From the NCBI GenBank assembly GCA_029247315.1, contig JAQWLM010000067.1, positions 465 through 64,464 of the forward strand: 64,000 nt of DNA, written 5' to 3'. Positions 5,752 to 60,106 of the stretch are shown in pieces (position 1 is the first letter of the stretch; every line of letters begins with the position of its first letter). Under the pieces are notes generated by a model. It was not told the origin of the DNA. It saw only the letters and a program-made list of their open reading frames with translations, and ran no database searches. This DNA comes from Verrucomicrobiota bacterium (GTDB lineage: Bacteria > Verrucomicrobiota > Verrucomicrobiia > Limisphaerales > AAA164-E04). The translations under genes were made by a program, and so were the position numbers.

Positions 5752-6753
5752 CTAACCCTGCACGTTCTTTGGGGAACATTGCGGGGCGTTTGAGAGGCGT
5801 GTCACTGCCTCCTGAAAGTCCTCAGGTATGGGGGCTTCAAATAGGAGTGCCTTACCTGTTGCTGGGTGATCAAAACCAAGTTTCCACGCGTGCAGCAGTT
5901 GCCTCGGTGGTGTGAAGCCACTGGTCTCGGTCAGTCTGGAGCTGCTGCGTTTGCCATAGCTGGCGTCTCCAAACAAGGGGAAGCCCAGGTATTTGAAGTG
6001 GACACGAATCTGGTGGGTACGTCCGGTGTGTAGTCGAACCTCGACCCATGTTGCGAGGGTTCCAAAATACTCACGCACCTTGTAATCGGTGACTGCGAGG
6101 CGTCCTCCATCCACAACGGACATCAGCTTTCGCTGCGTTGGATGTCTTGCGATGGGAGCCTGGATTCTATTCTGATCTGGTAACAGGTTGCCGCACACTA
6201 CCGCCGTGTAAACCTTCGTCACAGAGCGTCGAGCGAATTGCATCGTCAATCCCTGATGAGCCGCGTCCGTCTTTGCGATTACCATGCATCCACTGGTGTC
6301 CTGGTCCAGGCGGTGTACGATTCCAGGTCGAGCCACATCTCCAATGCCACTCAATTGGCCCTTGCAATGGTGCAGTATGCCATGCACGAGGGTTCCTGTC
6401 GCATGCCCCGCAGCTGGGTGCACGACAAGACCGGGAGGCTTGTTGACCACCATGAGATGTTTATCCTCGAAGAGGATTGCAAGTGGCATGACCTCAGGTA
6501 TCAAATCCATCGGACGGATTGCTGGAGGCGTGATGGTGATGCGTTCACCTGCCTTGGGTTTGTGGCTTGGTTTAACCTTTTGCCCGTTGACAAGAATGTG
6601 TCCCTCATCAATCCACCTGCGGATGTTTCCGCGGGTCAGGTCAGCCAGTTGCTCGTTCAGCCAGCTGTCCAGGCGTGTCCCCAGTTGCGTTGTCTTCACC
6701 TCCAGTGTGCCCTCGCCTTGAGAGGCATTCGATGGATCAGACGGATCTTCCAT
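5752..6753 (-). CDS. rluD: 23S rRNA pseudouridine synthase, RluA family with S4 domain (RluD-like)
   Basis: S4-like N-terminus (..RLDSWL..RGNIRRWIDEGHILVNGQ), catalytic HRLDQDTSGCMVIAKT, and ..GRTHQIRVH... Starts 3 nt after the lgt stop. Confidence 0.88.
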   Translation of the reverse strand: MEDPSDPSNASQGEGTLEVKTTQLGTRLDSWLNEQLADLTRGNIRRWIDEGHILVNGQKVKPSHKPKAGERITITPPAIRPMDLIPEVMPLAILFEDKHLMVVNKPPGLVVHPAAGHATGTLVHGILHHCKGQLSGIGDVARPGIVHRLDQDTSGCMVIAKTDAAHQGLTMQFARRSVTKVYTAVVCGNLLPDQNRIQAPIARHPTQRKLMSVVDGGRLAVTDYKVREYFGTLATWVEVRLHTGRTHQIRVHFKYLGFPLFGDASYGKRSSSRLTETSGFTPPRQLLHAWKLGFDHPATGKALLFEAPIPEDFQEAVTRLSNAPQCSPKNVQG

Positions 6754-47543: not shown

Positions 47544-49214
47544 ATGTCTCAATTATTGAACCAGATGGTTGAGTCCCGGCAGCTATCTGCTTCTGATGCC
47601 AAATGGCTTCTGGAACGACAGGGCAGCGGGGACGAGGACCGTTACGCAACCGAGCCCGAAGTGCTGCGGTGGTTGGCCCAGGAATATGCGGTCTCGTTTA
47701 CCGACCTTGAAGAGGTGGACATCCATCGAGACGTCTTGGGACTCTTTCCAGCACGTCTACTCCTCAAAGAAGGTCTGCTTCCTCTCAAGCGCGAAAACGG
47801 AGCCGTAGACATCGCCACAAGTCGCTTGTTTGCCACCCAGGGCCTGGATACTCTCAAATCACTTACTGGCCTCAAGCTCAACCCTGTGCTGGCGCCTTCC
47901 GAGGCAATCCAGAGGGAGATTAAAAAGCGTCTTGGGGTTGGTGCAGACACCATTGACACGCTCAAGGACGATGCATCCTTCCAGATCGTTGATGAACAGG
48001 CGACGGAACACACGGACCTGGATAATGCCGCCGAGGATGCTTCCATCATCCGGTTCGTGAATCAAGTGTTGAGTGACGCCATTGACTTACGCGCCACGGA
48101 CATTCACCTGGAACCTTTCGAGGAGGAACTTCAGATTCGCTATCGCATTGATGGTGTCCTGCAGGAAGTTCCCGTACCTGCCGAGATCAAGCGTTTTCAA
48201 CCCGCCATTGTCTCCCGCGTCAAGATTCTCAGTCACCTCAATATTGCGGAGAAACGCCTTCCTCAGGACGGTCGCATCAAGTTGAAGTTACGGCAAGGTG
48301 AAGTGGATGTGCGCGTTTCTATCATCCCGATGTTGCATGGGGAGGCGGTTGTGATGCGATTACTTCGGCAAGATGGGTCGATTCCGGGACTCGATCAGAT
48401 TGGCATGGGGCAAGAGGAATTGAAGCTGTTCAAGCAAATCCTCACCATTCCCCATGGAATTTTTCTGGTAACAGGGCCTACGGGCAGCGGTAAAACCACC
48501 ACGCTTTACACTGCCTTGAACACCATCAATGACATGGCGCGCAAGATCATCACAGTGGAGGATCCGGTGGAATATCAGATCAGGGGCATCAACCAGATAC
48601 AGGTATCCGAAAAATCCGGCTTGACCTTCGCCAGGGGATTGAGGGCTATCTTGCGGCATGATCCAGATGTCGTGCTGATTGGTGAGATACGTGACGAGGA
48701 AACGGCTCGAATTGCCATTCAGGCCTCCTTGACCGGTCACCTGGTTTTCTCCACGCTTCATACCAACGACGCTCCCAGTGCCATGACTCGATTGATCGAC
48801 ATGGGTATTGAGCCATACCTCGTCGCCTCTTCGCTTGAAGGGGTGCTTGCCCAGCGACTTGTCAGGACACTCTGTCCGCATTGCCGTGAACAGGACAAGT
48901 CCGAAAGGGTCAAGGCCATGCTCGAGAGCGCGAAAATACCTCCTGGAACGCCTCTCTACAAGGCCGTCGGCTGCCGGGAATGCCGCCAGACGGGTTATCA
49001 TGGTCGGCGAGCTGTCTTCGAGATGATGGGTGTCAGCTATCCCATTCGTCAGCGTATCCTACAGAATGCTTCCAGCGGTGAACTCAAGGAACTTGCACGT
49101 AAGGAAGGCATGAGGACTTTGAGCCAGGACGGGTGGCGTCTTGTCGAGGAAGGGGTTACCACACCGGATGAGGTGATGCGTGTGGCAAAGGACGAGGTGC
49201 TTTCCAATTTGTAA
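47544..49214 (+). CDS. gspE: Type II secretion / type IV pilus assembly ATPase (GspE/PilB family)
   Basis: T2SSE_N-type N-domain, Walker A VTGPTGSGKTTT, Asp box, Walker B ..DPDVVLIGEIRD.., His box, and the tetracysteine CPHC..CRECRQTGYHGR. Confidence 0.93.
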   Translation: MSQLLNQMVESRQLSASDAKWLLERQGSGDEDRYATEPEVLRWLAQEYAVSFTDLEEVDIHRDVLGLFPARLLLKEGLLPLKRENGAVDIATSRLFATQGLDTLKSLTGLKLNPVLAPSEAIQREIKKRLGVGADTIDTLKDDASFQIVDEQATEHTDLDNAAEDASIIRFVNQVLSDAIDLRATDIHLEPFEEELQIRYRIDGVLQEVPVPAEIKRFQPAIVSRVKILSHLNIAEKRLPQDGRIKLKLRQGEVDVRVSIIPMLHGEAVVMRLLRQDGSIPGLDQIGMGQEELKLFKQILTIPHGIFLVTGPTGSGKTTTLYTALNTINDMARKIITVEDPVEYQIRGINQIQVSEKSGLTFARGLRAILRHDPDVVLIGEIRDEETARIAIQASLTGHLVFSTLHTNDAPSAMTRLIDMGIEPYLVASSLEGVLAQRLVRTLCPHCREQDKSERVKAMLESAKIPPGTPLYKAVGCRECRQTGYHGRRAVFEMMGVSYPIRQRILQNASSGELKELARKEGMRTLSQDGWRLVEEGVTTPDEVMRVAKDEVLSNL

Positions 49215-49229
49215 TCTTTTGGGGATATT

Positions 49230-50465
49230 GTGGCATCTTTTGAATACAAAGCCATCAAGGCTGACGGTCGCACCACCAATGGCTCTATTGAAGCCGGGGG
49301 TAGGCAGGATGCGTTCCGCAAGATGGAATCGCAGGGTCTCAGGCCCATCAGGCTGACTGAAAGAAAGACCGAGTCTCCCACGTCTTCCCAATCTGCCTCG
49401 CGATCCTTGCTTCCCTGGCAGTCAGGTAAAATCACCTTTAAAATGCTGGAGAATTTTACACGGCTTCTCTCCAGCCTTCTTTCCGCGGGGGTGCCTTTAA
49501 GCCGTGCCTTGGTGATCCTCTATCGGGAGGCGGCGACCCCTTCGGCAGGTGAACGTTGGAAAGCGGTGCATGACTTTGTTGTGGATGGAATGTCGCTTGC
49601 CGCCTCGATGGGGCGGTTCCCGGACACTTTTCCAAAGGTGTATGTTGCCATGGTGGAAGCAGGCGAAACGGGGGGGTTTCTCGATATCGTGCTTGGCCAG
49701 ATTGCGGATTTCCAGTCACGTGACAAGGAGCTGCGGGGAAAGGTGCTGTCGGCGATGATTTATCCGGTTGTACTGCTTTTCCTTGCCTTGGCCGTCTTGG
49801 TATTTTTGATGGTTTTCTTCATCCCACGCTTCAAGGTTTTGTTTGAGGGGTTCGATGCCGCTTTGCCCTTGCTGACGCAGGTGATCGTCGGTTGCAGTGC
49901 CTTTTGCCAAACGTATGGTTTTTTTATTCTCATCGGTGTTGGGATTGCTGGCGTCGTTTTTCGTAACTGGTTAGCTACTAATAATGGGCGTCGTCGGTTT
50001 GAACAGGTCATGCTCAACCTTCCTGTCATTGGGCCTCTGAATGCTCAGTTTGCCATGGCGCGTTTCTGTCGTATGTTGGGCACTCTACTGAATGCAGGCG
50101 TTCCTTTGATTCAAGGATTGAACGTTGCGCGCCGTTCAATAGGGAATCAAATTCTGGTGGACGCTGTTTCAGATTCAATCGAGCGCGTTAAAAAGGGAGA
50201 TTCCCTGGCGCGCAGCTTATCAGACTGCCGGGTTCTGTTTCATGGTTCCATCCTTGAAATGATTTCGGTGGCGGAGGAAAGCGGCCGATTGGACGACGAG
50301 TTGATTCGACTGGCCGCGACCACTGAAAAGGAGCTGGATCAGCAGTTGAAGATGGCAGTCTCACTGATGGAGCCTCTGATGCTGTTCCTGATTGCTGGCT
50401 TCATAGGAACGATTTTTATCGGAATGGTGATTCCTATCTTCACCATTCAGGACTACATTAAATAA
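49230..50465 (+). CDS. gspF: Type II secretion inner-membrane platform protein (GspF/PilC family)
   Basis: Two GspF repeats (..LSSLLSAGVPLSRAL.. and ..LGTLLNAGVPLIQGL..) and three TM segments. GTG start 15 nt after gspE. Confidence 0.92.
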   Translation: MASFEYKAIKADGRTTNGSIEAGGRQDAFRKMESQGLRPIRLTERKTESPTSSQSASRSLLPWQSGKITFKMLENFTRLLSSLLSAGVPLSRALVILYREAATPSAGERWKAVHDFVVDGMSLAASMGRFPDTFPKVYVAMVEAGETGGFLDIVLGQIADFQSRDKELRGKVLSAMIYPVVLLFLALAVLVFLMVFFIPRFKVLFEGFDAALPLLTQVIVGCSAFCQTYGFFILIGVGIAGVVFRNWLATNNGRRRFEQVMLNLPVIGPLNAQFAMARFCRMLGTLLNAGVPLIQGLNVARRSIGNQILVDAVSDSIERVKKGDSLARSLSDCRVLFHGSILEMISVAEESGRLDDELIRLAATTEKELDQQLKMAVSLMEPLMLFLIAGFIGTIFIGMVIPIFTIQDYIK

Positions 50466-50488
50466 AAGACCCTCACCCAAAACGGATT

Positions 50489-50944
50489 ATGATACTAACA
50501 AAGCTGACTCACGACGCACATCGCCATCACTCAAAAGGCTTCACATTGGTGGAGATGCTGTTGGTATTGGTTATTCTGGCCGCACTCGCTGCCGTGGTCG
50601 TGCCCAAGTTTGCAGGTAGATCCCAGCAGGCCAAGGAGACGGCAGCGCGCAGCCAGATTGCGAACCTCGAAATTGCGCTCGACATGTTTGAGACTGACAA
50701 TGGGTATTACCCTGCTGGCAGTGACGGCATGAATGAACTGATTGATGAGCCTAACAACGCCACCAGCTGGCAGGGCCCTTACCTCAAAAAGGGGATCCCA
50801 ATCGATCCATGGGGTAATGATTACGTGTATGAGTTTCCAGGTAAACAAAACAACGCGGGATACGACATCATGTCCATGGGGCCCGATGGGCGTGTGGGTG
50901 GAACCGACGATATTTCAAATTGGGATTACCAGAAAAGGGACTGA
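50489..50944 (+). CDS. gspG: Major pseudopilin GspG
   Basis: Motifs KG|FTLVEMLLVLVILAALAAVVVPKF.., ..AKETAARSQI..LE.AL.MF..DNG.YP.., ..WQGPYLKK..IDPWGN.YVY..PG..G.YDI.S.G.DG..GG.DDI.NW. Confidence 0.93.
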   Translation: MILTKLTHDAHRHHSKGFTLVEMLLVLVILAALAAVVVPKFAGRSQQAKETAARSQIANLEIALDMFETDNGYYPAGSDGMNELIDEPNNATSWQGPYLKKGIPIDPWGNDYVYEFPGKQNNAGYDIMSMGPDGRVGGTDDISNWDYQKRD

Positions 50945-51015
50945 TGCCGCTTGCGATGGGAAGTTGGTGCTTCATCCGTATGATGTGCCTCATGCCGGAT
51001 ACCATGTAATATGAT

Positions 51016-51600
51016 ATGAAAACAAATGCTTCGGCACGTGCTATCCACAATCGAGTGAAGAGATCCTGGCAGGGTTTCACGCTTGTGGAGCTTATCATGG
51101 TCATGGTGGTGCTTGCGAGTATCATGGCTGTTTCGGCTCCATCCCTGAATCAGTTTTTTAAGCATTCGACGCTGAATGATGAGGCGCGTCGCATGGTGGG
51201 TTTGCTTGAAATGGCACGACGTGAAGCCATCTCCAACGGATTTCCCATGCAGGTGTGGTTTGACATTGAAAACCAATGGTTTGGCATACGAGAACTCTCC
51301 GGCACAGGATCGGGAGTGAATGAGGCCACGGGGCAGCAAGAGACAGAGGGCCGTTTCTTTTATCAGATTCACAGTCAATTGGAACTCGAGCTGGATCGCA
51401 CCCTGCCCAATATGAGTCTGCTTCCGAGTATTATTTACTTCCCTGATGGCCTTATGGAGGAAACAAGTCTGAGGGGTTTTTATCTGAAGAACCGGAAGCG
51501 TGAGGATCAACGCCTACAAATTGCCCGCAGTCTCAACGGATTGAGTTATGAGATCCGAAAAGCCGATGAAATGCTCCTTATCCAGAACGAGATTTTCTAG
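51016..51600 (+). CDS. gspH: Minor pseudopilin, GspH-like
   Basis: QG|FTLVELIMVMVVLASIMAVSAPSL, followed by ..DEARRMVGLLEMARREAISNG.. (GspH domain pattern). Confidence 0.8.
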   Translation: MKTNASARAIHNRVKRSWQGFTLVELIMVMVVLASIMAVSAPSLNQFFKHSTLNDEARRMVGLLEMARREAISNGFPMQVWFDIENQWFGIRELSGTGSGVNEATGQQETEGRFFYQIHSQLELELDRTLPNMSLLPSIIYFPDGLMEETSLRGFYLKNRKREDQRLQIARSLNGLSYEIRKADEMLLIQNEIF

Positions 51601-51970
51601 GGAGAACCTGTCTCGTGGTGGTTTTACTTTCGCCGAGGTGCTTGCCGCACTCGTGTTTCTGGGTATCCTCTTACCTGTGGTGATGCAGGGCCTTGTCCTG
51701 GCAAATCGTGCTTCCATACTTGCAGAGCGCAAGCGCATTGCAACCCATCTGGGTGATGGGCTTCTTACGGAACTGGTGGCGACTGACGACTGGCAATTTG
51801 CCGCCAGTCGCGGCAATTTCCAGCCAGAGCACATGGAATACCAGTGGGAACTGGTTCAGTCCGGATGGTTCGAGGGCGACATGCTTCAGTTGACGGTGAG
51901 GGTCACCTTTCCCGTCCAGGGGCGTCCCTATCAGGTAGAACTCGCCACATTGGTAGATAATTCATCATAA
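51548..51970 (+). CDS. gspI: Minor pseudopilin, GspI-like
   Basis: GG|FTFAEVLAALVFLGILLPVVMQGL..ANRA. Small size typical of GspI. The start is uncertain (ATG at 51548 or 51566) and overlaps the gspH end. Confidence 0.75.
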   Translation: MRSEKPMKCSLSRTRFSRENLSRGGFTFAEVLAALVFLGILLPVVMQGLVLANRASILAERKRIATHLGDGLLTELVATDDWQFAASRGNFQPEHMEYQWELVQSGWFEGDMLQLTVRVTFPVQGRPYQVELATLVDNSS

Positions 51971-51974
51971 TGAC

Positions 51975-52724
51975 ATGAAAGTGGGTTTTGATGCATCCTT
52001 TCGTGCTCGCCAGGGCTTCACCCTGCTGGAAATCCTCGTTGCCAGTGTAGCGTTTGCCATGATTGTCATGGTCATCAAGGTGACCCTGATGGAATCCATG
52101 GATTTACGTGATCGCCGGCTGGAGCGCATGGAAAAAATGAATACCAGGATGCGCTTGATCGAGATCATGCAGGTGGACTTGAGGCAATGTTTATTGACCG
52201 AGACGGACCTCGCTCCCAGCTTTTTAGGAGATTCTTCCAATGGAGGCATACAGCGTGCCGATCAGTTGGAGTTTTACGCCTGCAGCGGTGTTATCCTGAC
52301 AAACCAGCCTTGGGGACATCTACAGAAAATACGTTACTACCTTGGCGACCCCATGGACGATGGGCGTGAGGAACTTCCTGAAGGCATGTCCCTATACAGG
52401 GAAACAACGCGCAATCTATTGGCTTCCTCTCAGCAAACAATCCAGCCGATGCCCATTGCCAACGGACTCGCCTCACTCGCGTTTCAATACTATGATGGAA
52501 CGGTCTGGCACGACAACTGGGACTCAGCTTCGGAAGTTTCCAAACTCCCTGTGGCCGTTCGCATCCGTCTGGAGTTTGTTGATGATTCCGAGGATATGTC
52601 GTCCATTCAAGCAGCCAAGGCCCGGAAAAGGGGGTTGTCATCCGTGCAGACCACGGTTGCATTAATGGCAACTCCCAAGGTGGATGAAAGCGAGGATGCA
52701 GAGATGCCCGAGGAGGGCTCCTGA
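51975..52724 (+). CDS. gspJ: Minor pseudopilin, GspJ-like
   Basis: QG|FTLLEILVASVAFAMIVMVI. About 250 aa, with the typical C-terminal ..LPVAVRIRLEF.. strand. Confidence 0.75.
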   Translation: MKVGFDASFRARQGFTLLEILVASVAFAMIVMVIKVTLMESMDLRDRRLERMEKMNTRMRLIEIMQVDLRQCLLTETDLAPSFLGDSSNGGIQRADQLEFYACSGVILTNQPWGHLQKIRYYLGDPMDDGREELPEGMSLYRETTRNLLASSQQTIQPMPIANGLASLAFQYYDGTVWHDNWDSASEVSKLPVAVRIRLEFVDDSEDMSSIQAAKARKRGLSSVQTTVALMATPKVDESEDAEMPEEGS

Positions 52725-52746
52725 GGGACTGAAAGCAAGGCGCGAT

Positions 52747-53418
52747 ATGAACCATTCTCAAAGCATTCATTGTTCGAAATGTGGCAGGGTGATCGAGTAT
52801 CCCATTGAAAAAGAAGGGGCCACGGGCTGGTGCCCGGATTGCGATCACCAAGTCTGGTATTCACAACTCAGCGAGGATGTTCTACAAGGTCGTAGAACGC
52901 ACCGGAGTGATCGATCTGGCGCAGCGGTGCCATCGAGAGGGCCCGCCCCCAGTTGGTGGGCAGTGGGCATGCTTGGGTTCCTGGTTGTATGTAATCTTCT
53001 GCTTGGTTACATGGTGATTGGCTTGAGGGGCCAGGTCGGCCAGATAATGAACGGATCAACTTCCAGCCATGAGACGGCAGAAGCGCAGCCTTCGCTGGTC
53101 GTTATGACTCAAGGTAGCAAACCCATGCTGCAGGGGGTGTTAAGTCGTCAGGGCCATGAAATCGCCCTGACGGAGGCCCTGAGCCTTCTGCATGGTGAAA
53201 TGGTGACCAATCTCGATGAAAACAGAATACAACTTGCCGACCAGTCCAGTCGCCTGGAGCACCTGATGGAAGCATCCAGCGATCTGAACATTGCAATTGA
53301 AATCATGGTCGAGGAAGTTACAAACCTTGCCATCAGACTCGAGCAGCTTTCCAACGATTTCTCTGGCTTGGATGAGCAACAAACCAGCATGCAGGAAGGT
53401 TCTGATGCACTGGATTAG
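52747..53418 (+). CDS. Hypothetical bitopic protein: N-terminal zinc ribbon, one TM helix, coiled-coil C-terminal domain
   Basis: CSKCG..(x17)..CPDCD, hydrophobic WWAVGMLGFLVVCNLLLGYMVIGL, then heptad-like ..LEHLMEASSDLNIAIEIMVEEVTNLAIRLEQLSNDF... Sits between gspJ and gspK. Internal ATG of ORF 52684-53418. Confidence 0.6.
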   Translation: MNHSQSIHCSKCGRVIEYPIEKEGATGWCPDCDHQVWYSQLSEDVLQGRRTHRSDRSGAAVPSRGPAPSWWAVGMLGFLVVCNLLLGYMVIGLRGQVGQIMNGSTSSHETAEAQPSLVVMTQGSKPMLQGVLSRQGHEIALTEALSLLHGEMVTNLDENRIQLADQSSRLEHLMEASSDLNIAIEIMVEEVTNLAIRLEQLSNDFSGLDEQQTSMQEGSDALD

Positions 53419-53547
53419 CCAGATGCCAGGTTATGTGGAAGGATGTCGGGCAGGGGGGGCTCTCCCAGAAAGTTGTAACCAACACCGGATGATCAACGTC
53501 TCACCTTGGACGTTCACCAGAACGATGCAGAGGACACCTTGGAAATC

Positions 53548-54732
53548 ATGAACATCAGGACATCATGCGACCCTGCACGAGAGCAACGGACACAAGGTTC
53601 GGTGCTGATCGTAGTCATGTGGGTTGCATTGGGACTGGTGACAGTGACCCTTTATTTTGCCCATTCGATGTATTTTGAGTTCAAGGCGGCACAAAACAAT
53701 TACGAAGGCACTCAGGCCAGGCATGCCGTTGAAGGGGCCTTGCGTTATGCCGTCTATCTCCTTGCCAATCAGGAGGAATCAGGGGCCTTGCCTGATCCTG
53801 AGACCTATATTGCCGAGAGAGGTGAGGTAGGGGAAGCTACCTTCTGGTTTCTTGGACGGGACGATTTAAACAACACCACAACCTTGCCTTTTTTCTCGAT
53901 TGCCGATGAGGGAGCCAAGCTCAACTTAAACCTCGCTACCCAGGAAATGCTGGAGCTTCTTCCCAGCATGCCGCTTGATTTTGCCGCTGCCATCGTTGAC
54001 TGGCGGGATGAGGATGAGGAGGCCTCTGAAGGAGGGGGTGCCGAGTCGGATGTCTATGCACGCCTGAATCCTTCTCGACTGGTCAAGAATGCACCTTTTG
54101 ACAGCGTAGATGAACTTATGCTTGTCCATGGTGCGGACCCTCAGGTGGTCTATGGAGAGGATGCCAACATGAACGGGTTGCTGGACCCCAACGAAAACGA
54201 CGGAGATCGTACTCCTCCGGTGGATGATGCCGATGGCATCCTTGACTTCGGACTGGTGGAATACCTGACCGTTTACGGTGCCATGCCGCAAGAGGAGGGT
54301 CAGGATTCTGATAGTCCCAACAACGATTCGGAAGATCAGCAGACACTCATGGTCAATGTGAACTCTGCCAGTGCGGCTGTGCTTGCCTGCCTTCCGGGGA
54401 TGGACGATCAAAAAGCGCAGCAAATCGTTGCCTACCGAAACAGCCTTACAGGATTGGGGGTTGATACGGAATGGGTCAATGAGGCATTGGAGGAGGAGAA
54501 CTTTTCCCAGACAGAACCTTATCTCACGGGTGCCGCTTCCCACTACAGGATTGATGTCGCTGCAGTCGGAAGGCAGGGCAAGGGTTTTCGTAGGACGCAG
54601 TTCGTCGTGGACATGACCGGCGAGGAGCCCTTGATCGTTCATCGGAAAGACCTGGAGCGACGAGGCTGGGCACTGGGTCAAAGCCTGCGCGAACAATTGA
54701 ACTATGATTTTCAACAGCAAGGTCAAAGATAA
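53548..54732 (+). CDS. gspK: Minor pseudopilin GspK-like
   Basis: QGSVLIVVMWVALGLVTVTL (no Glu5, as in GspK), ..LNLNLATQEMLELLP..AAAIVDWRDEDEE.., ..FDSVDELMLVHG.., and ..VNVNSASAAVLACLPGMDDQKAQQIVAYR.. (HhH). Confidence 0.82.
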   Translation: MNIRTSCDPAREQRTQGSVLIVVMWVALGLVTVTLYFAHSMYFEFKAAQNNYEGTQARHAVEGALRYAVYLLANQEESGALPDPETYIAERGEVGEATFWFLGRDDLNNTTTLPFFSIADEGAKLNLNLATQEMLELLPSMPLDFAAAIVDWRDEDEEASEGGGAESDVYARLNPSRLVKNAPFDSVDELMLVHGADPQVVYGEDANMNGLLDPNENDGDRTPPVDDADGILDFGLVEYLTVYGAMPQEEGQDSDSPNNDSEDQQTLMVNVNSASAAVLACLPGMDDQKAQQIVAYRNSLTGLGVDTEWVNEALEEENFSQTEPYLTGAASHYRIDVAAVGRQGKGFRRTQFVVDMTGEEPLIVHRKDLERRGWALGQSLREQLNYDFQQQGQR

Positions 54733-56099
54733 TGGGGTGGAGACAAGGTAAACCTGCCAGCGTGGTAAGTCTGGACTGGCAGCACGATACACTTCAGTTT
54801 GAGAGTGTGCGCAAGGCCGGGCAGGGGTGCCGTTCTGTGACACAGGGTTCCATGGTGCTTCCTGAGAATGTCTTTGAAGAAGATGCGGAAACCCTTGGGG
54901 CTGCGCTGCGGACAAAGCTGGATGCCGCAGGGATCAAGGAGAAGGGAGCCATTTGCTCCCTTCCCATCGCCTGGTTGTTTGGGGTGCGAACCGAGGTCCC
55001 TCAATTGAGTGGGGAAGATCTTGAGTTTTTCTTCCAGACACAGGCTGAGCGTGCCTTTCCCTTACCTCTGGATGAACTGTGCATTTCCAGATCGCAATTT
55101 ACTTCTTCTGAAGGAAAGCAACACGCTTTCATTATGGCCATCGCGGTGCATCGACTCGATCACCTTAGTCGGGTAATGCAAGCCGCCGGATTACAACCTC
55201 TGAGCTGGTCTCTCAATTCCGCCAGTCCCTCGTTTCTCCAATCTCTTCCGGAGAAAAATGCCCTTTGTATATGTTCAAAACCCCATGGGTTCGATTTGAT
55301 CGTGGTGCTTGGGCAGCGCCTCGCATTGGCTCGGTCCCTGAGCGAGACTGACAGTTCCGGGCAGATCGCCCGTGAGGTCAAGATCAGTCTTGGGGAGTTG
55401 GATGCGGATATTCAGGCTTCCGTCGATGCCTTCTACCATTGTGCTGAGTGGGATGTTGATGAGGGGGCAATTCCGGAAATAACCAAGACCTTTGATGGTT
55501 TGGCCAAGCGATTGGACCTGGAATACAAATCTGTTTCAAGGAAACAAACGGCTGCCCTGGATCTGGGGGCCGATTTTCTGCTCAATCGAGCCAATCCATT
55601 CGAATTCCTGCCTCCCAAAGTCAGTCCCTTTGAAGAGTGGACCCAAACATTTTCTACAGGCCGTAACAAATGGTTGGGAACTGCCACGGTTGCTGTTGTG
55701 TTTACCCTGTGCCTTTTGTTTTTCTGGAAGAGTCAAACCCTCAAGGGGCTTGAGGAGGAGTGGTTGGCGATGGAGGAGCAGGTGGGTGAACTGGAGGGAT
55801 TGCAGGAGCGTATCCGGCTCTATCGTCCATGGTATGACGAAAGCATCCCGAGCCTGAAGCTTATTCAACACCTCACTCAGGCCTTTCCGGAACAAGGCGA
55901 GGTCTGGGTCAGGGAGCTTGAAATTCGAGATGCTTCTACAGTGGTATGCTCCGGGTTTGCGCGCAATCAACGTGCCTGGCTTGATATGTTCGAAAAACTT
56001 CGCATGTCTCCACAAGTAAAGGATCTGACACTGGGCTATCTTCGCGAGGACAAGCAGCAGGAGTTTTCTTTTCAATACCGTTGGGAGGCCAAGCCATGA
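54732..56099 (+). CDS. PilM-like actin-fold domain fused through one TM helix to a PilN-like domain (GspL analogue)
   Basis: Cytoplasmic ~300 aa with a PilM/GspL-like pattern, TM WLGTATVAVVFTLCLLFFW, then a coiled-coil/ferredoxin-like periplasmic part. The ATG overlaps the gspK stop by 1 nt. Confidence 0.65.
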   Translation: MGWRQGKPASVVSLDWQHDTLQFESVRKAGQGCRSVTQGSMVLPENVFEEDAETLGAALRTKLDAAGIKEKGAICSLPIAWLFGVRTEVPQLSGEDLEFFFQTQAERAFPLPLDELCISRSQFTSSEGKQHAFIMAIAVHRLDHLSRVMQAAGLQPLSWSLNSASPSFLQSLPEKNALCICSKPHGFDLIVVLGQRLALARSLSETDSSGQIAREVKISLGELDADIQASVDAFYHCAEWDVDEGAIPEITKTFDGLAKRLDLEYKSVSRKQTAALDLGADFLLNRANPFEFLPPKVSPFEEWTQTFSTGRNKWLGTATVAVVFTLCLLFFWKSQTLKGLEEEWLAMEEQVGELEGLQERIRLYRPWYDESIPSLKLIQHLTQAFPEQGEVWVRELEIRDASTVVCSGFARNQRAWLDMFEKLRMSPQVKDLTLGYLREDKQQEFSFQYRWEAKP

Positions 56100-56629
56100 A
56101 CAAAGTAAGCCGGGAGAAAAAACTTTTGATCGTTGCTGTGTCTGCGGTGGTGATCCTTTTTGGAGATAAATTTCTGGTTAGCCCGATGTTGGGGGCCTGG
56201 GAAAATCGTTCTAACCAGATTCTGGAACTTGAAAAAAAATTGGTTCGTGGTCGGGCCCTCATGAAAAGGGAATCGAACATACGGCGTCAATGGATGTCCA
56301 TGTGGCAGGGGGGTATGCCTCTCAATAAATCGGTCTCAGAAAACAAGGTGCTTGAATCCGTGGATCGTTGGGCAAGCGAAAGCCGGATCAGTTTTACATC
56401 CATCAAACCCAACTGGCGTGTCTCAGAGCAGGGACACCTCACCCTTGAGTGTCGCGCCAATGGCTATGGAAACCTTGACAAGATTACGCGCTTTGTCCAC
56501 GCCCTCGAGTCGGATCCCATGGCCTTACGAGTGGACTCCTTGGAATTGACACAGCGGAATGAAGAGGGATCCGTCATCGGTATGAACATCAACTTCAGCG
56601 GTTTATTACTAACGGAGGCATTGAAATGA
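56096..56629 (+). CDS. PilO/GspM-like bitopic assembly protein
   Basis: Short N-terminus, TM LLIVAVSAVVILFG, a coiled coil, and an alpha/beta C-domain. 4-nt ATGA overlap with the upstream gene. Confidence 0.6.
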   Translation: MNKVSREKKLLIVAVSAVVILFGDKFLVSPMLGAWENRSNQILELEKKLVRGRALMKRESNIRRQWMSMWQGGMPLNKSVSENKVLESVDRWASESRISFTSIKPNWRVSEQGHLTLECRANGYGNLDKITRFVHALESDPMALRVDSLELTQRNEEGSVIGMNINFSGLLLTEALK

Positions 56630-57306
56630 CCCGCACAACGTCACATTGGGAGGAAACGATATCTATACGACGGGGCAGGGTATGTCTTGTCTTGATGGCC
56701 TTACTGCTTGGCTTATCACAGGTATCCATGGGAGATGACGTGGTTTCAGCTGTGGAAACTGACATCGCTGAACAAGCCCCGGAGGGGGATGATGCTCAAG
56801 AAAAAAATACCACGGAAGAGTCTGTTTCAATGAACGATTTCAGTTCCTTTAATTTGATACTGGAGCGCAACATTTTTGATCCTGATCGAAGGGGACCAAG
56901 GAAACGGGAAGTCAAGGAAACCAAACCCAAACCACCCCTCAAAGATTCTTTTACACTCTTGGGTACCATGTCATACGAGGGGAAACAGTTTGCCTTCTTC
57001 GGTGCCTCGGACTCATCCTGGGCTGGGGCATTCAAACCGGGCGATTCGCTTGCGGACCATACCCTGGCTCAGATCAAATTTGACCGGGTGATTCTTCAAT
57101 GGGGCGACGATACGATTGACTTCGCCGTTGGGGATGCTCGCTTTCGGTATGGTGATACTCCCTGGAATACCCAGAATGGCTTGAGCGCTGGGTCTGAGGA
57201 TCAAGCCTTGGATTCCCCCGCCGATGTCTCCGAGGTTTCTAAACTGGAGGGAAACGATTTATTGAAACAATTGATGGAACGTAGAAAGCAGGAATTGGCA
57301 AAATGA
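56626..57306 (+). CDS. GspC (HR-domain)/PilP-like protein, no PDZ
   Basis: TM/signal VCLVLMALLLGL, ..ILERNIFDP.., then a beta-rich ..FTLLGTMSYEGKQFAFFGAS..FKPGDSLADHTLAQIKFDRVILQWGDDTIDF... 4-nt overlaps on both sides. Confidence 0.6.
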   Translation: MTRTTSHWEETISIRRGRVCLVLMALLLGLSQVSMGDDVVSAVETDIAEQAPEGDDAQEKNTTEESVSMNDFSSFNLILERNIFDPDRRGPRKREVKETKPKPPLKDSFTLLGTMSYEGKQFAFFGASDSSWAGAFKPGDSLADHTLAQIKFDRVILQWGDDTIDFAVGDARFRYGDTPWNTQNGLSAGSEDQALDSPADVSEVSKLEGNDLLKQLMERRKQELAK

Positions 57307-58862
57307 TGACAACGATATCACAATCCCGAATTATCCCATTGGCGATCTGTCTGGCCCTCTGCACTCAGGTGACGCTTTTGATGGCACAAGATGCGACGAG
57401 CACGGAAGCGCAGGTCGAGGACCCCGTGAATGCCGATAAAGCCAAAGAGGGACTGAGGATGAACTTCAGGAATGTTCCACTGGCAATGGTGCTTGACTAT
57501 ATGAGTGAGGCGGCGGGATTTGCGATTATTGCCGAGACGGATGTTTCCGGCACGGTGAGTGTCTGGAACAATCAACCGCTCAACAAGGATGAGGCAGTGA
57601 GTCTTCTGGATTCTATCCTGATTGAGAAAGGTTATACTGCGGTCAGGGTGGGCAATACCCTCAAAATCATTGCCAAGGAAAATGCCAAATCCGAAAACCT
57701 GCCTGTGCGCTCAGGCAATGATCCCGAGGAAATCCCACAATCCGATCGCATGATCACCCAAATCATCCCCGTGCGCTACACGGGAGCCAGTGACCTGATC
57801 GAAAACCTGGAACCCTTGTTGCCAGAGGAGGCTTCCATGACGGCCAACCAAGGCAGCAACGCCATTGTGCTCACTGGCACGGAAAACAGTATTCGACGGG
57901 TGGCGGAAATTATCAGGGCTCTTGATACGAGCATTTCCGAGATCTCCCAACTTAAGGTGTTTGCTCTGCGCTATGCAGACTCCACGGAGTTGTCCAAGGT
58001 GATACAGGGTCTTTTTGAGTCGGGTGGAAGTTCCTCTTCAAGCAGTAGCCGGAGCAGTCGAGGGAGTAGCAGCTCAGGCATGGCCTCCTTTATTGAGCGG
58101 ATGCGCGCCATGCGGGAGGGGAGGGGAAGCAGCAGTAGCCGTGGAAGCAGCAGTAGCCGTGGAGGCAGCAGTAGCCGTGGAGGCAGCAGTAGCCGTGGAA
58201 GCAGTGATGCACTTAAAGCTGCCTCACGCGTTGTTGCCGTTGCAGATGAACGCACGAATTCGTTGATCGTCAGCGCCCCTGAAGAGTTGATGGAAACCAT
58301 AACTCAACTGGTTGCTGAAATTGATAGAAACATTGATGACATCACCGAGTTGCAGGTTTTCCCATTGAAATTTGCAGATGCCTATGAAATGGCCCAACTT
58401 CTGGAGGAGCTTTTTGATGACTCCCAGGAAGAGAACTCCAGGGGCGGATTCCGCTTTGGCGATTCACGTTCGAGCCGGAGCAGTAGTCGGAGCAGTAGCC
58501 GAGGTGGCAGCGATGAAAGCGCGCGCATGCAGGCCATAGCTCGTGTGGTCGCTGTTGCGGATCCACGTACCAATGCGGTGATTGTTTCCGCATCAGCCAA
58601 TCTGATGGTGCAGATTGGTAGAATGGTTGAAAAACTCGATTCGGATGAATCCAAGAAACAGAATGTCTACGTCTATTCGCTGGATAATGCGGATGTGGAT
58701 AACGTGGCTACCATCCTGAGGGGTATGTTCGAGTCGCAGTCAAATTTGAATAATCGCAACAACGCTTCCCGTAGCGGTAACAACAGCAATAACCCGCTCA
58801 ATAACCGAAGTGTCAACCAGTCGAATTTCAGCATTGGTGGTACCTCCACAGGGAATCGATAG
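57303..58862 (+). CDS. Secretin N-terminal module only: signal peptide, N0/STN-like domain, 3.5 Secretin_N repeats with Ser/Arg/Gly-rich inserts; no pore domain
   Basis: N0: LRMNFRNVPLAMVLDYMSEAAGFAII..GTVSVW... Repeats: IIPVRYTGASDL..NAIVLTGTE.., LKVFALRYADSTEL..RVVAVADERTNSLIVSAPEE.., and LQVFPLKFADAYEM..RVVAVADPRTNAVIVSASAN... Ends after VYVYSLDNADVDNVATILRGMFES plus an Asn-rich tail. Confidence 0.85.
   Translation: MMTTISQSRIIPLAICLALCTQVTLLMAQDATSTEAQVEDPVNADKAKEGLRMNFRNVPLAMVLDYMSEAAGFAIIAETDVSGTVSVWNNQPLNKDEAVSLLDSILIEKGYTAVRVGNTLKIIAKENAKSENLPVRSGNDPEEIPQSDRMITQIIPVRYTGASDLIENLEPLLPEEASMTANQGSNAIVLTGTENSIRRVAEIIRALDTSISEISQLKVFALRYADSTELSKVIQGLFESGGSSSSSSSRSSRGSSSSGMASFIERMRAMREGRGSSSSRGSSSSRGGSSSRGGSSSRGSSDALKAASRVVAVADERTNSLIVSAPEELMETITQLVAEIDRNIDDITELQVFPLKFADAYEMAQLLEELFDDSQEENSRGGFRFGDSRSSRSSSRSSSRGGSDESARMQAIARVVAVADPRTNAVIVSASANLMVQIGRMVEKLDSDESKKQNVYVYSLDNADVDNVATILRGMFESQSNLNNRNNASRSGNNSNNPLNNRSVNQSNFSIGGTSTGNR
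58125..58205 (+). repeat. 18-bp in-frame tandem repeat (about 4.5 copies) encoding (G-S/G-S-S-S-R)n
   Basis: ggaagcagcagtagccgt x2, ggaggcagcagtagccgt x2, then ggaagcagt, read directly. The frame was checked against ORF 57303. Confidence 0.9.
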
Positions 58863-58960
58863 ATTTACAGTGGTCGCTTCAGCATGTGAGAATGAATGGA
58901 GGAATGAGGATGAATGATTTCAAGGGTCAATGGATAAAGGGTAAACACAGGTTTTTGGGT

Positions 58961-60106
58961 ATGGCTGGATTGGACAGGATTAGTCACTTTTTTGTGGTGA
59001 TACTCCTTTTGCATGCCATGGATTCAGCCAGCTTGTCAGCTCAGTCAGCCCGTGGAGGTGGTTTGGGCATGACAGGGCAAAGTACCCGGCAATATCTAAA
59101 TAACACGCAGGTCGGTGATGCCTTGATTGAGGTGGATCCAGAGACACGCTCGGTCATTGTGATTACAGATGATGAGACCAATCTTCAGATTGAGAAAGTG
59201 CTCAAGACCCTGGATCGTCCCAAACCCCAGGTATTGATCAAGGTGGTCTTTATGGAGGTTACCCACCGGGATGATCTCGACGTGGGAGTCGATGGAAGTC
59301 TGTCCTTCACTTCGGGTTCTGCCACTAATATTGTTCAGTCTGTTTTTGGATCCGGATCTCAGGGGCAGGGGGGTGTTTACCAACTGCTCGAGAGTGATTT
59401 CAGCGTCACCCTCAAGGCCATTGCTGAAGCTGGAAAACTGGAGGTTCTCTCCAGACCCTCCATCCTTGCTCGTAACAATCAAGAGGCCATTATCACCGTG
59501 GGACAGACCGTGCCTTTCATTGACAACGTAAATTTTCTGCAGGGAGGCCAGCAGGTTAATACTGTGGAATACCGGGATATCGGCATTATTCTCAGGGTAA
59601 CGCCATTCATTACTCAGGATGGCATGGTTGAAATGATCGTTGGTCCCGAGATTTCAACCATCACCGACGAGACCGTGACGATCTCCGATGGTGTCGAGGC
59701 ACCGGTCTTTGCCAAGCGTGCTGCGGAGACGGTAGTGGTGACGCCGCACGGCAAGACGGTCATCATTGGTGGTTTAATGGAGAAGAACAAGATTGAAAGC
59801 AAACGCAAGGTTCCCATTCTGGGGGATATTCCCCTGCTTGGTTGGGCCTTTCGACGGACCATCAAGGAAGATACCAAAACCGAGCTCCTCATTTTCCTGA
59901 CCCCGTACATTGTGCAGGATCCTCGGCAATTGGGAGAATTGACCACACTTGAATCACGCAATGCTGAACTTCCCAGCAAGGCCTTTACCGAGGCGGAACT
60001 GCAGCAATTCATTGGCGATGTCGAGGGCTTGAAGAAGGAAGAGGACAAGATCACGGATTCGAAAACGAAAAACGAGCGCAAAGGCTTTTTTCGGCGTCGG
60101 CGTTGA
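58961..60106 (+). CDS. gspD: Secretin pore module: own signal peptide, C-terminal half of a Secretin_N repeat, secretin domain
   Basis: Signal MAGLDRISHFFVVILLLHAMDSASLSAQS. Then ALIEVDPETRSVIVITDDETNLQIEKVLKTLD, QVLIKVVFMEVT.., ..VLSRPSILARNNQEAIITVGQTVPF.., and ..KVPILGDIPLLGWAFR..ELLIFLTPYIV. The ORF opens with GTG at 58886; the ATG at 58961 is preferred. Confidence 0.88.
   Translation: MAGLDRISHFFVVILLLHAMDSASLSAQSARGGGLGMTGQSTRQYLNNTQVGDALIEVDPETRSVIVITDDETNLQIEKVLKTLDRPKPQVLIKVVFMEVTHRDDLDVGVDGSLSFTSGSATNIVQSVFGSGSQGQGGVYQLLESDFSVTLKAIAEAGKLEVLSRPSILARNNQEAIITVGQTVPFIDNVNFLQGGQQVNTVEYRDIGIILRVTPFITQDGMVEMIVGPEISTITDETVTISDGVEAPVFAKRAAETVVVTPHGKTVIIGGLMEKNKIESKRKVPILGDIPLLGWAFRRTIKEDTKTELLIFLTPYIVQDPRQLGELTTLESRNAELPSKAFTEAELQQFIGDVEGLKKEEDKITDSKTKNERKGFFRRRR

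Follow-up and report, generated by a model that had tools for sequence, protein, structure and literature searches.

Secretins of type II secretion systems (T2SSs), of type IV pili, and of most type III secretion systems (T3SSs) are treated as single-chain homomultimers, and the models for their biogenesis, dependence on pilotins, gating, and coupling to the inner-membrane platform all take the pore and the rings of N-terminal domains to be covalently linked. Here, we examined a secretin locus of another kind in a 64,000-nucleotide (nt) stretch of a Verrucomicrobiota genome (GenBank assembly GCA_029247315.1, contig JAQWLM010000067.1, positions 465–64,464; hereafter, the window), where a complete gsp operon (E, F, G, H, J, K, L, M, and C, assigned from Pfam and NCBIfam matches) ends with a pair of secretin genes. 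We designated the products GspD-N, the N-terminal polypeptide encoded by the first open reading frame (ORF1), and GspD-C, the pore polypeptide encoded by ORF2. The original prediction, made from the letters of the window, had described them as one secretin encoded as two separately secreted polypeptides. Unless stated otherwise, the coordinates below are those of the window and the features lie on its forward (+) strand.

Split secretins have been described as a family trait of the rhizobial-type T3SS, with RhcC1 (NolW) and RhcC2, and of the Pseudomonas syringae T3SS-2, with HrcIIC1 and HrcIIC2; the functional meaning of the RhcC1/RhcC2 split is given as unknown, and the Rhc genes have other genes between them or occupy different regions of the cluster, and they can be under different regulation (PMC3574062, PMC3973906). 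These systems resemble the present locus by analogy only, in that a secretin is encoded as separate N-terminal and C-terminal ORFs. They belong to T3SSs (family SctC) and their two genes are non-adjacent, whereas here GspD is the best match, the neighbors are T2SS genes, and the two ORFs are adjacent, with a gap of ~30–50 nt. For the mitochondrial T2SS of some eukaryotes, the available text of PMC10128026 describes a pore-forming GspD/GspDL that is separate from soluble GspDN1–3. There, as here, the pore and the N-domains are separate gene products, but the mitochondrial proteins are eukaryotic, nuclear-encoded, and imported into the organelle, with several N-domain proteins, whereas the present genes lie in a bacterial operon with mostly Verrucomicrobiota relatives; furthermore, no complementary halves of a single domain are described in the available text of that source. 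The claim of the original prediction that GspD and PilQ secretins are single chains is therefore right in general, with RhcC1/RhcC2 and the mitochondrial GspD/GspDN proteins as exceptions. Denise et al. (2019) discuss fission solely for TadB/TadC, and in the full-text literature, the coverage of which was incomplete so that an earlier mention is possible, we found no split bacterial T2SS GspD, intradomain cut, or second signal peptide. Canonical GspD/PulD/XcpQ (PDB 5wq7, 5wq8, 6hcg, 5wln, and 5zdh) shares with the present pair the N0 domain, the Secretin_N repeats, the pore-adjoining N3 domain, the pore, and a gene position within a gsp operon (E, F, G, H, J, K, M, and C), and GspD supplied both the best family match of the two halves (TIGR02517) and the best structural matches. 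The present pair differs in being divided within N3 into two polypeptides, in carrying a second signal peptide, and in having one extra Secretin_N domain and very long low-complexity loops. Canonical GspD assembles, as roughly 15 subunits, into a gated channel of the outer membrane through which folded proteins are secreted.

GspD-N (57303–58862, frame 0) is 519 amino acids (aa) long. At its N-terminus, a positively charged n-region precedes a hydrophobic h-region and, after it, an A↓Q site (the arrow marks the cleavage position); together they form a signal peptide of 28 residues (57303–57386) with a predicted cleavage at VTLLMA↓QDATS; A28 and Q29 are both invariant in alignment A2, and residues 10–27 were modeled as a helix by AlphaFold2 (AF2). 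Pfam placed the GspD N0 domain (PF21305) at residues 53–122 (5.6e−13) and PF03958 in three stretches (4.5e−43), and it found no Secretin pore domain in ORF1. When the Pfam matches, the AF2 model, and the alignment with N0–N2 of GspD structures in the PDB were considered together, N0 and three complete Secretin_N domains occupied positions 57453–58637, with N0 at residues 51–124, N1 at 150–208, N2 at 214–341, and N2′ at 347–445. The loops between α1 and β2 are rich in Ser, Arg, and Gly in N2 (approximately residues 240–307) and in N2′ (approximately 374–412). In the AF2 model, which had a mean predicted local distance difference test (pLDDT) value of 57, N0 and three β-α-β-β-α units were modeled at 70–80 and the loops at <50.

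Near the end of ORF1, the stretch KQNVYVYSLDNADVDNVATILRGMFES (residues 452–478; 58656–58736) shares the strand-helix opening pattern of the three intact repeats and would constitute the first half (β1-α1) of a split N3, the pore-proximal Secretin_N domain. In alignment A2, 12 columns within residues 453–477 of this half are invariant, as against 10 columns in the corresponding stretch of the intact repeat before it; the half was also seen at the C-terminus of the orthologous N-halves inspected. It is followed by an Asn/Ser-rich tail of 41 residues and a TAG stop codon (residues 479–519; 58737–58862). The tail carries a conserved NPLxNR motif, with R490, L499, N501, R502, and G512 invariant in A2, and its median length in orthologues is ~49 aa. 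When ORF1 was modeled alone, the terminal half-repeat and the tail (residues 451–519) had pLDDT values of <50. At the DNA level, the N2 and N2′ loops are encoded by low-complexity stretches at 58020–58220 and 58420–58540 (beginning SSSRGSSSSRGG), and the opposite strand over these loops contains long ORFs, such as 57971–58300 and 58382–58654, with Leu/Pro/Arg-rich low-complexity translations, which we took to be spurious.

ORF2 has three possible start codons: GTG at 58886, ATG at 58910, and ATG at 58961. The original prediction had placed the start at 58961 (MAGLDR), 98 nt downstream of ORF1. ATG 58910 is the most likely start, because a Shine-Dalgarno-like GGAGG (58898–58902) lies ahead of it with a 7-nt spacer, the public gene call P0001 (99% identical, 398 aa) starts as from this codon, and the resulting n-region equals in length that of close orthologues. 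ATG 58961 was not preferred when weighed against these three points, and the support for GTG 58886 was not comparable. With the start at 58910, the intergenic spacer (58863–58909) is 47 nt long, not 98 nt.

GspD-C (58910–60106, frame 2) is accordingly 398 aa long and begins MNDFKGQW. Its signal peptide (residues 1–44; 58910–59041), modeled as a helix by AF2, has a predicted cleavage site at HAMDSASLSA↓Q and is followed by a Gly-rich linker (residues 45–69; 59042–59116; AF2 pLDDT <50) with an RQYxNNT motif conserved in alignment A1; in orthologous pore-halves, the median linker length is 33 aa. In a phmmer search against the PDB, residues 71–110 aligned with residues 307–346 of PulD (6hcg), just ahead of the PulD secretin domain, and we read this stretch as the second half of the pore-proximal N3. 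On the basis of this alignment and the AF2 model, the putative half (β2-β3-α2) was assigned to residues 70–102 (59117–59215); the model contains strands at 71–76 and 81–85 and a helix at 88–101, with block-mean pLDDT values of ~68–90. The remainder (59216–60106) consists of the secretin pore (approximately residues 103–352), a Lys/Glu-rich C-terminal tail, and the stop codon. The sole Pfam match of ORF2 was the Secretin pore domain PF00263 (E = 3.2e−48; 163.9 bits against a cut-off of 27.5). The AF2 model of ORF2 alone (mean pLDDT 69) showed the signal peptide helix, the disordered linker, a β-hairpin plus helix, and then the barrel, and its top Foldseek matches in the PDB were the T2SS GspD structures 5zdh, 6hcg, and 6i1x (E of ~1e−15 to 1e−16).

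The two ORFs represent complementary parts of a single GspD, because their Pfam matches and their matches to the NCBIfam GspD equivalog TIGR02517 (600 positions) complement each other: ORF1 covers positions 1–318 of the equivalog (237 bits) and ORF2 covers positions 269–599 (239 bits), each below the full-length cut-off of 351.35 bits. The T3SS family SctC (TIGR02516) scored 45 and 121 bits for the two halves, compared with 237 and 239 bits for GspD. As in GspD, N0 precedes the Secretin_N domains, the fourth of which is shared between residues 452–478 of ORF1 and 70–102 of ORF2, and PF00263 forms the C-terminal pore, here in ORF2; the gsp operon around the pair also supplies GspE and GspF, the pseudopilins G–K, and GspC, GspL, and GspM. 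The pair departs from GspD in that the N-domains and the pore are not in one polypeptide and that neither half exceeds the equivalog cut-off. Judged from its sequence, the pair is a real two-gene GspD of a T2SS, cut inside a small domain. These results bear out the domain content given in the original prediction, namely a Sec signal, N0, three Secretin_N domains, and half of a fourth without a pore in ORF1 (Pfam and the repeat pattern agree), the missing half-repeat and then the pore in ORF2 (the PulD alignment, PF00263, and AF2 agree), and long Ser/Arg/Gly inserts in the two preceding repeats, which correspond to the loops at ~240–307 and 374–412 with pLDDT <50; the mapping with the Secretin_N and Secretin models that it had proposed as a check placed N-domains in ORF1 and the pore alone in ORF2. 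The ATG of GspD-N (57303) overlaps the stop codon of the upstream GspC-like gene by 4 nt, and a promoter and terminator scan, in which site counts were at chance level and which was informative solely on this point, found no terminator-like site between the GspD-N and GspD-C genes. The two genes are likely co-transcribed.

The split is widely conserved. We collected the best 120 relatives of each ORF among 5.8 billion proteins, with identities reaching down to ~50% and with sources in independent NCBI, JGI, ENA, and Logan assemblies. All 120 relatives of ORF2 were 320–490 aa long and nearly all had the pore domain only, whereas none of the 120 relatives of ORF1 had a pore domain and all but one (P0174) were ~380–520 aa long. 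In the exception (651 aa), a GspC-like protein is apparently joined to GspD-N; its sequence looks locally garbled, and the joined protein probably reflects a frameshift or a chimeric contig, not a true fusion. A scan of one genome per GTDB species yielded 80 loci, 78 of them with upstream DNA, and in every one of these 78 an ORF1-like gene ended just before an ORF2-like gene, with no fused form. The junction itself was variable: the two ORFs were in the same frame in 34 loci and in other frames in 44; the ORF1 stop codon was TGA in 33, TAA in 29, and TAG in 16; and the gap from the stop to the predicted start had a median of 32 nt, was ≤60 nt in 72 loci, and ranged from −17 to 809 nt. In the closed chromosome CP170459.1 (6.08 Mb), which has the same gsp gene order as the window, the same pair lies 50 nt apart at the end of the same operon. 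On these comparisons, the split is real biology and evolutionarily fixed, not a sequencing error. A search for orthologues with one continuous ORF, which the original prediction had named as the decisive check, thus came out the opposite way, and the division that it had placed between two ORFs recurs at the same place in all 78 loci and in the 240 listed database relatives.

The second signal peptide is conserved as well. Apart from a few N-terminally truncated proteins, the 120 ORF2 relatives have a positively charged n-region and a hydrophobic h-region at their start; these lead to a small-x-Ala↓Gln site and then to a linker rich in Gly. In the 33-sequence alignment A1, the pore-half Gln at +1 is invariant. 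A start resembling a signal peptide was found in 79 of 79 loci with a complete pore-half, as the original prediction of a second signal peptide at the opening of ORF2 would have it. An automatic rule recognized 67 of these; the other 12 were assigned by manual reading and comprised nine in which the rule had landed on VLIKVVF, a hydrophobic stretch with which the pore begins, one just below the hydrophobicity threshold, and two with another cleavage context (ADA↓A in L077 and a lipobox-like LLIGC in L078). The remaining 77 contexts were of the A/G/S↓Q type. The signal peptide of ORF1 ends in a similar way, with LMA↓QD. This conservation marks the second Sec signal as a selected feature. In the window, Gln stands at +1 in both halves, in LMA↓Q (57384–57389) and LSA↓Q (59039–59044), as it does in the 77 orthologous pore-halves. 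A “Q-rule,” by which an N-terminal Gln (pyroglutamate) follows the signal peptide, has been reported for Bacteroidetes, and the +1 Gln observed here resembles it. In L078 (~5960–6060), VLLIGC↓SAPQ takes the place of A↓Q, which may make the pore chain of this lineage a lipoprotein.

Three other explanations of the two-ORF arrangement were weighed. Because junction frames, stop codons, and gaps vary among orthologues, a sequencing error, a recent pseudogene, and a conserved recoding signal are excluded. For the window alone, a sequencing or assembly frameshift, or a recent pseudogene of a single continuous gspD, would be easy to propose, as frame 2 is open from 58805 and one indel within 58805–58862 would join the ORFs. 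However, the same split in all 240 listed relatives and all 78 loci, from independent projects and including a closed chromosome, together with the varying frame relations and gap lengths, leaves this explanation next to no probability; a joined product would, moreover, bury the conserved signal peptide inside a periplasmic loop, and the corresponding loop is purely hydrophilic in true single-chain relatives. The frameshift and pseudogene reading was therefore rejected by comparative genomics. Programmed recoding, either ribosomal frameshifting or stop-codon read-through, that yields a single GspD chain would fit the 34 loci with ORFs in the same frame, most of which are open from the ORF1 stop codon onward, but it would require +1 or −1 shifts of differing kinds in the other 44, the use of all three stop codons, and gaps of −17 to 809 nt. 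ORF2 also keeps an independent start codon and signal peptide, with a strong GGAGG ahead of ATG 58910 in the window, and recoding was rejected as extremely improbable given the variation of frames, stops, and gaps among orthologues. The hydrophobic N-terminus of ORF2 could instead be an uncleaved signal-anchor, or a lipid anchor in some lineages. The n-region is long if translation starts at 58910 (44 residues ahead of the putative site), and one orthologue has the lipobox-like LLIGC, but in 77 of 79 orthologues a short h-region is retained and leads into a small residue, x, Ala/Gly/Ser, and Gln, the ORF1 signal peptide has the same type of end (LMA↓Q), and tethering to the inner membrane would prevent the pore from inserting into the outer membrane. 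We consider an anchor very unlikely.

The position of the cut can be read from single-chain relatives. When 1.84 billion cluster representatives were searched exhaustively with HMMER, the top 26 (≥265 bits) were all short and of the split type, and the nearest single-chain relatives (P0267, 876 aa; P0269, 847 aa; P0270, 846 aa; P0274; and others) shared ~40–46% identity over the pore half. P0267, P0269, and P0270 are uncharacterized metagenomic proteins in which the same motifs flank the position of the cut, but in one chain with a continuous loop. Ahead of the loop, the single-chain relatives have AVFxYxLKNAxAxxxxxVLNxxF; the loop itself is 40–130 aa long and rich in Gly, Ser, Thr, and Arg, with no hydrophobic stretch and no internal signal peptide; and past the loop come GQVYxVADxDTNSLLV and LDxPVPQVLIKV and then the pore. 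Because these relatives show the uncut domain with that loop, the fission is placed inside the long disordered α1-β2 loop of N3, which agrees with the original prediction of a break in the α1-β2 loop. In the split family, the upstream gene keeps ~40–50 loop residues as its tail and the downstream gene ~20–50 as its linker, and the downstream half would have gained a ribosome-binding site, a start codon, and a Sec signal peptide. The split most likely arose as a near-neutral fission that was tolerated in a long linker; it may have brought an adaptive benefit, but none is needed to explain it. Motifs conserved within the split family stand on either side of the cut (tail, NPLxNR; linker, RQYxNNT) and were not seen in the loops of the single-chain relatives; as a matter of speculation, they hint at a new contact. 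At the opposite extreme from the split form, some related pore domains make up the very C-terminal end of giant proteins that are 1,650–4,700 aa long (P0313, P0324, P0325, P0327, P0348, P0352, P0354, P0359, P0366, P0383, and P0385); giant genes of predatory bacteria are the subject of a bioRxiv paper (10.1101/2023.11.21.568195).

The closest matches of the pair are from Verrucomicrobiota, which agrees with the PVC group named in the original prediction, and the best locus matches are labeled Pedosphaera sp. The verrucomicrobial loci come from Pedosphaera, Limisphaerales, Opitutaceae, Chthoniobacteraceae, and Spartobacteria; other loci are in metagenome-assembled genomes (MAGs) labeled Omnitrophota, Sumerlaeota/BRC1, and Lentisphaeria, and a Hinthialibacter protein is among the ORF2 relatives. 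Four MAGs with a verrucomicrobial-type locus (L012, L028, L044, and L041) are titled Akkermansia muciniphila, Bifidobacterium sp., or Haliangiales; these titles are probably binning or labeling errors, and taxon counts based on titles need care. In a neighbor-joining tree of 142 pore domains, which is crude and has no support values, 33 of 36 split-type representatives fell in one clade of 40 with no fused member. Two further split representatives, P0306 and P0389, fell among fused relatives. In their loci, the upstream N-half ends with the strand-helix and a tail, the gap is 18–38 nt, and the pore-half has its own signal peptide, with the cut at the same N3 loop. In P0286 (JGI 3300056388 contig), the cut lies one Secretin_N domain earlier, directly after α1, which leaves an N-part of 329 aa and a pore part of 588 aa, the latter opening with a signal peptide and β2-β3-α2. 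These additional two-gene loci among single-chain relatives are located at L084 858–3319, L085 1773–4454, and L086. They tentatively suggest recurrent, independent fission at α1-β2 loops, a view that we hold loosely because the tree lacks support values.

We consider it probable that a fixed fission of gspD has produced two Sec-exported chains and that the N-chain docks on the pore by rebuilding N3, which would restore a GspD-like channel. In this mechanism, the two genes, last in the gsp operon, would be transcribed together, and both products would be exported through Sec and cleaved at A↓Q. GspD-C, with its half-N3 and pore, would multimerize and insert into the outer membrane; GspD-N, consisting of N0-N1-N2-N2′ and the other half-N3, would attach non-covalently, its β1-α1 packing on β2-β3-α2 of GspD-C to complete N3. 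The assembled channel would resemble canonical GspD, with the N0/N1 end reaching GspC and the inner-membrane platform. A conserved orphan half that does not fold alone (pLDDT <50) is what such trans-complementation predicts, although this evidence is indirect. Several points weigh against this mechanism, however. The complementation of the split domain in trans, like the export and cleavage of both chains, is deduced from sequence features, and the signal peptides were judged by alignment conservation and simple rules. Both AF2 monomers have moderate confidence (mean pLDDT 69 for ORF2 and 57 for ORF1), and the low pLDDT of the orphan half would fit the need for a partner but does not prove it. 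The count of 78 of 78 refers to these loci, and further full-length gspD copies elsewhere in the carrier genomes lie outside it.

Alternatively, both proteins may work without any rebuilding of a domain, GspD-C as a minimal secretin and GspD-N as a free or GspC-bound periplasmic adaptor or plug, with the half-repeats vestigial or serving other contacts. Solved secretins with few N domains, phage pIV (7ofh) and RcpA (8odn), are among the structural matches, the pore and N-domain proteins of the mitochondrial T2SS are separate (PMC10128026), and binding between the two halves is itself an inference. We nevertheless regard this alternative as unlikely: both half-domains are conserved across phyla-level distances at least as strongly as the intact repeats, the two genes are always adjacent, the halves, put together, reproduce precisely the series of domains found in the single-chain relatives, and a lone β1-α1 or β2-β3-α2 would expose a hydrophobic core. 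A doubtful extension of the docking of GspD-N on GspD-C is that the cut is used and not merely tolerated, with the GspD-N vestibule docking on and undocking from the GspD-C pore and the two being assembled separately. If this were the case, the periplasmic channel would be attached on demand, the pore could insert without ~450 N-domain residues being threaded through peptidoglycan, and the same-loop cuts in at least two further lineages (P0306 and P0389), the earlier cut of P0286, and the new motifs at the cut ends would reflect selection for a split architecture; the pair would then also be a ready-made natural periplasmic split-domain tag.

A large, phylum-spanning environmental group thus encodes its T2SS channel as two predicted Sec-exported chains that are cut inside a domain. 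The split GspD provides a natural experiment on which parts of a secretin need covalent joining, would be a natural case of periplasmic protein-fragment complementation if the halves rejoin, and offers a worked example of gene fission in which a disordered loop acquired a signal peptide de novo. It also carries a warning for annotation: the halves score below the GspD equivalog cut-off, the N-half is annotated merely as “secretin N-terminal domain-containing protein” or “hypothetical,” and system finders that need a full secretin may mis-score these T2SSs. The split T2SS secretin is genuine and widespread and lends itself readily to testing, and specialists in secretion systems would find it moderately to strongly surprising.

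The upstream part of the gsp operon (47544–57306) was delimited from Pfam and NCBIfam matches. It begins with GspE (47544–49214; Pfam T2SSE, 9.5e−138), GspF (49230–50465; T2SSF, 2.8e−57), and GspG (50489–50944; T2SSG, 1.1e−32), followed by GspH (51016–51600; Pfam GspH), a possible GspI assigned by position alone (51548–51970), and GspJ (51975–52724; T2SSJ). GspK (53506–54732; T2SSK) precedes a GspL-like protein of 455 aa (54732–56099), GspM (56081–56629; NCBIfam 3e−06), and a GspC-like protein (56626–57306; NCBIfam 9e−09), the last two under the curated cut-offs. The protein in the GspL position has a weakly PilM-like N-terminus and a weakly PilN-like C-terminus, and it looks like a PilM-PilN-type fusion rather than a recognizable GspL. 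Between GspJ and GspK lies an ORF of 244 aa without assignment (52684–53418), which overlaps the end of GspJ and for which the NCBIfam scan gave no match at E ≤ 0.01; at the corresponding position, the closed-genome relative carries an insertion sequence with an ISL3-family transposase and a 148-aa ORF.

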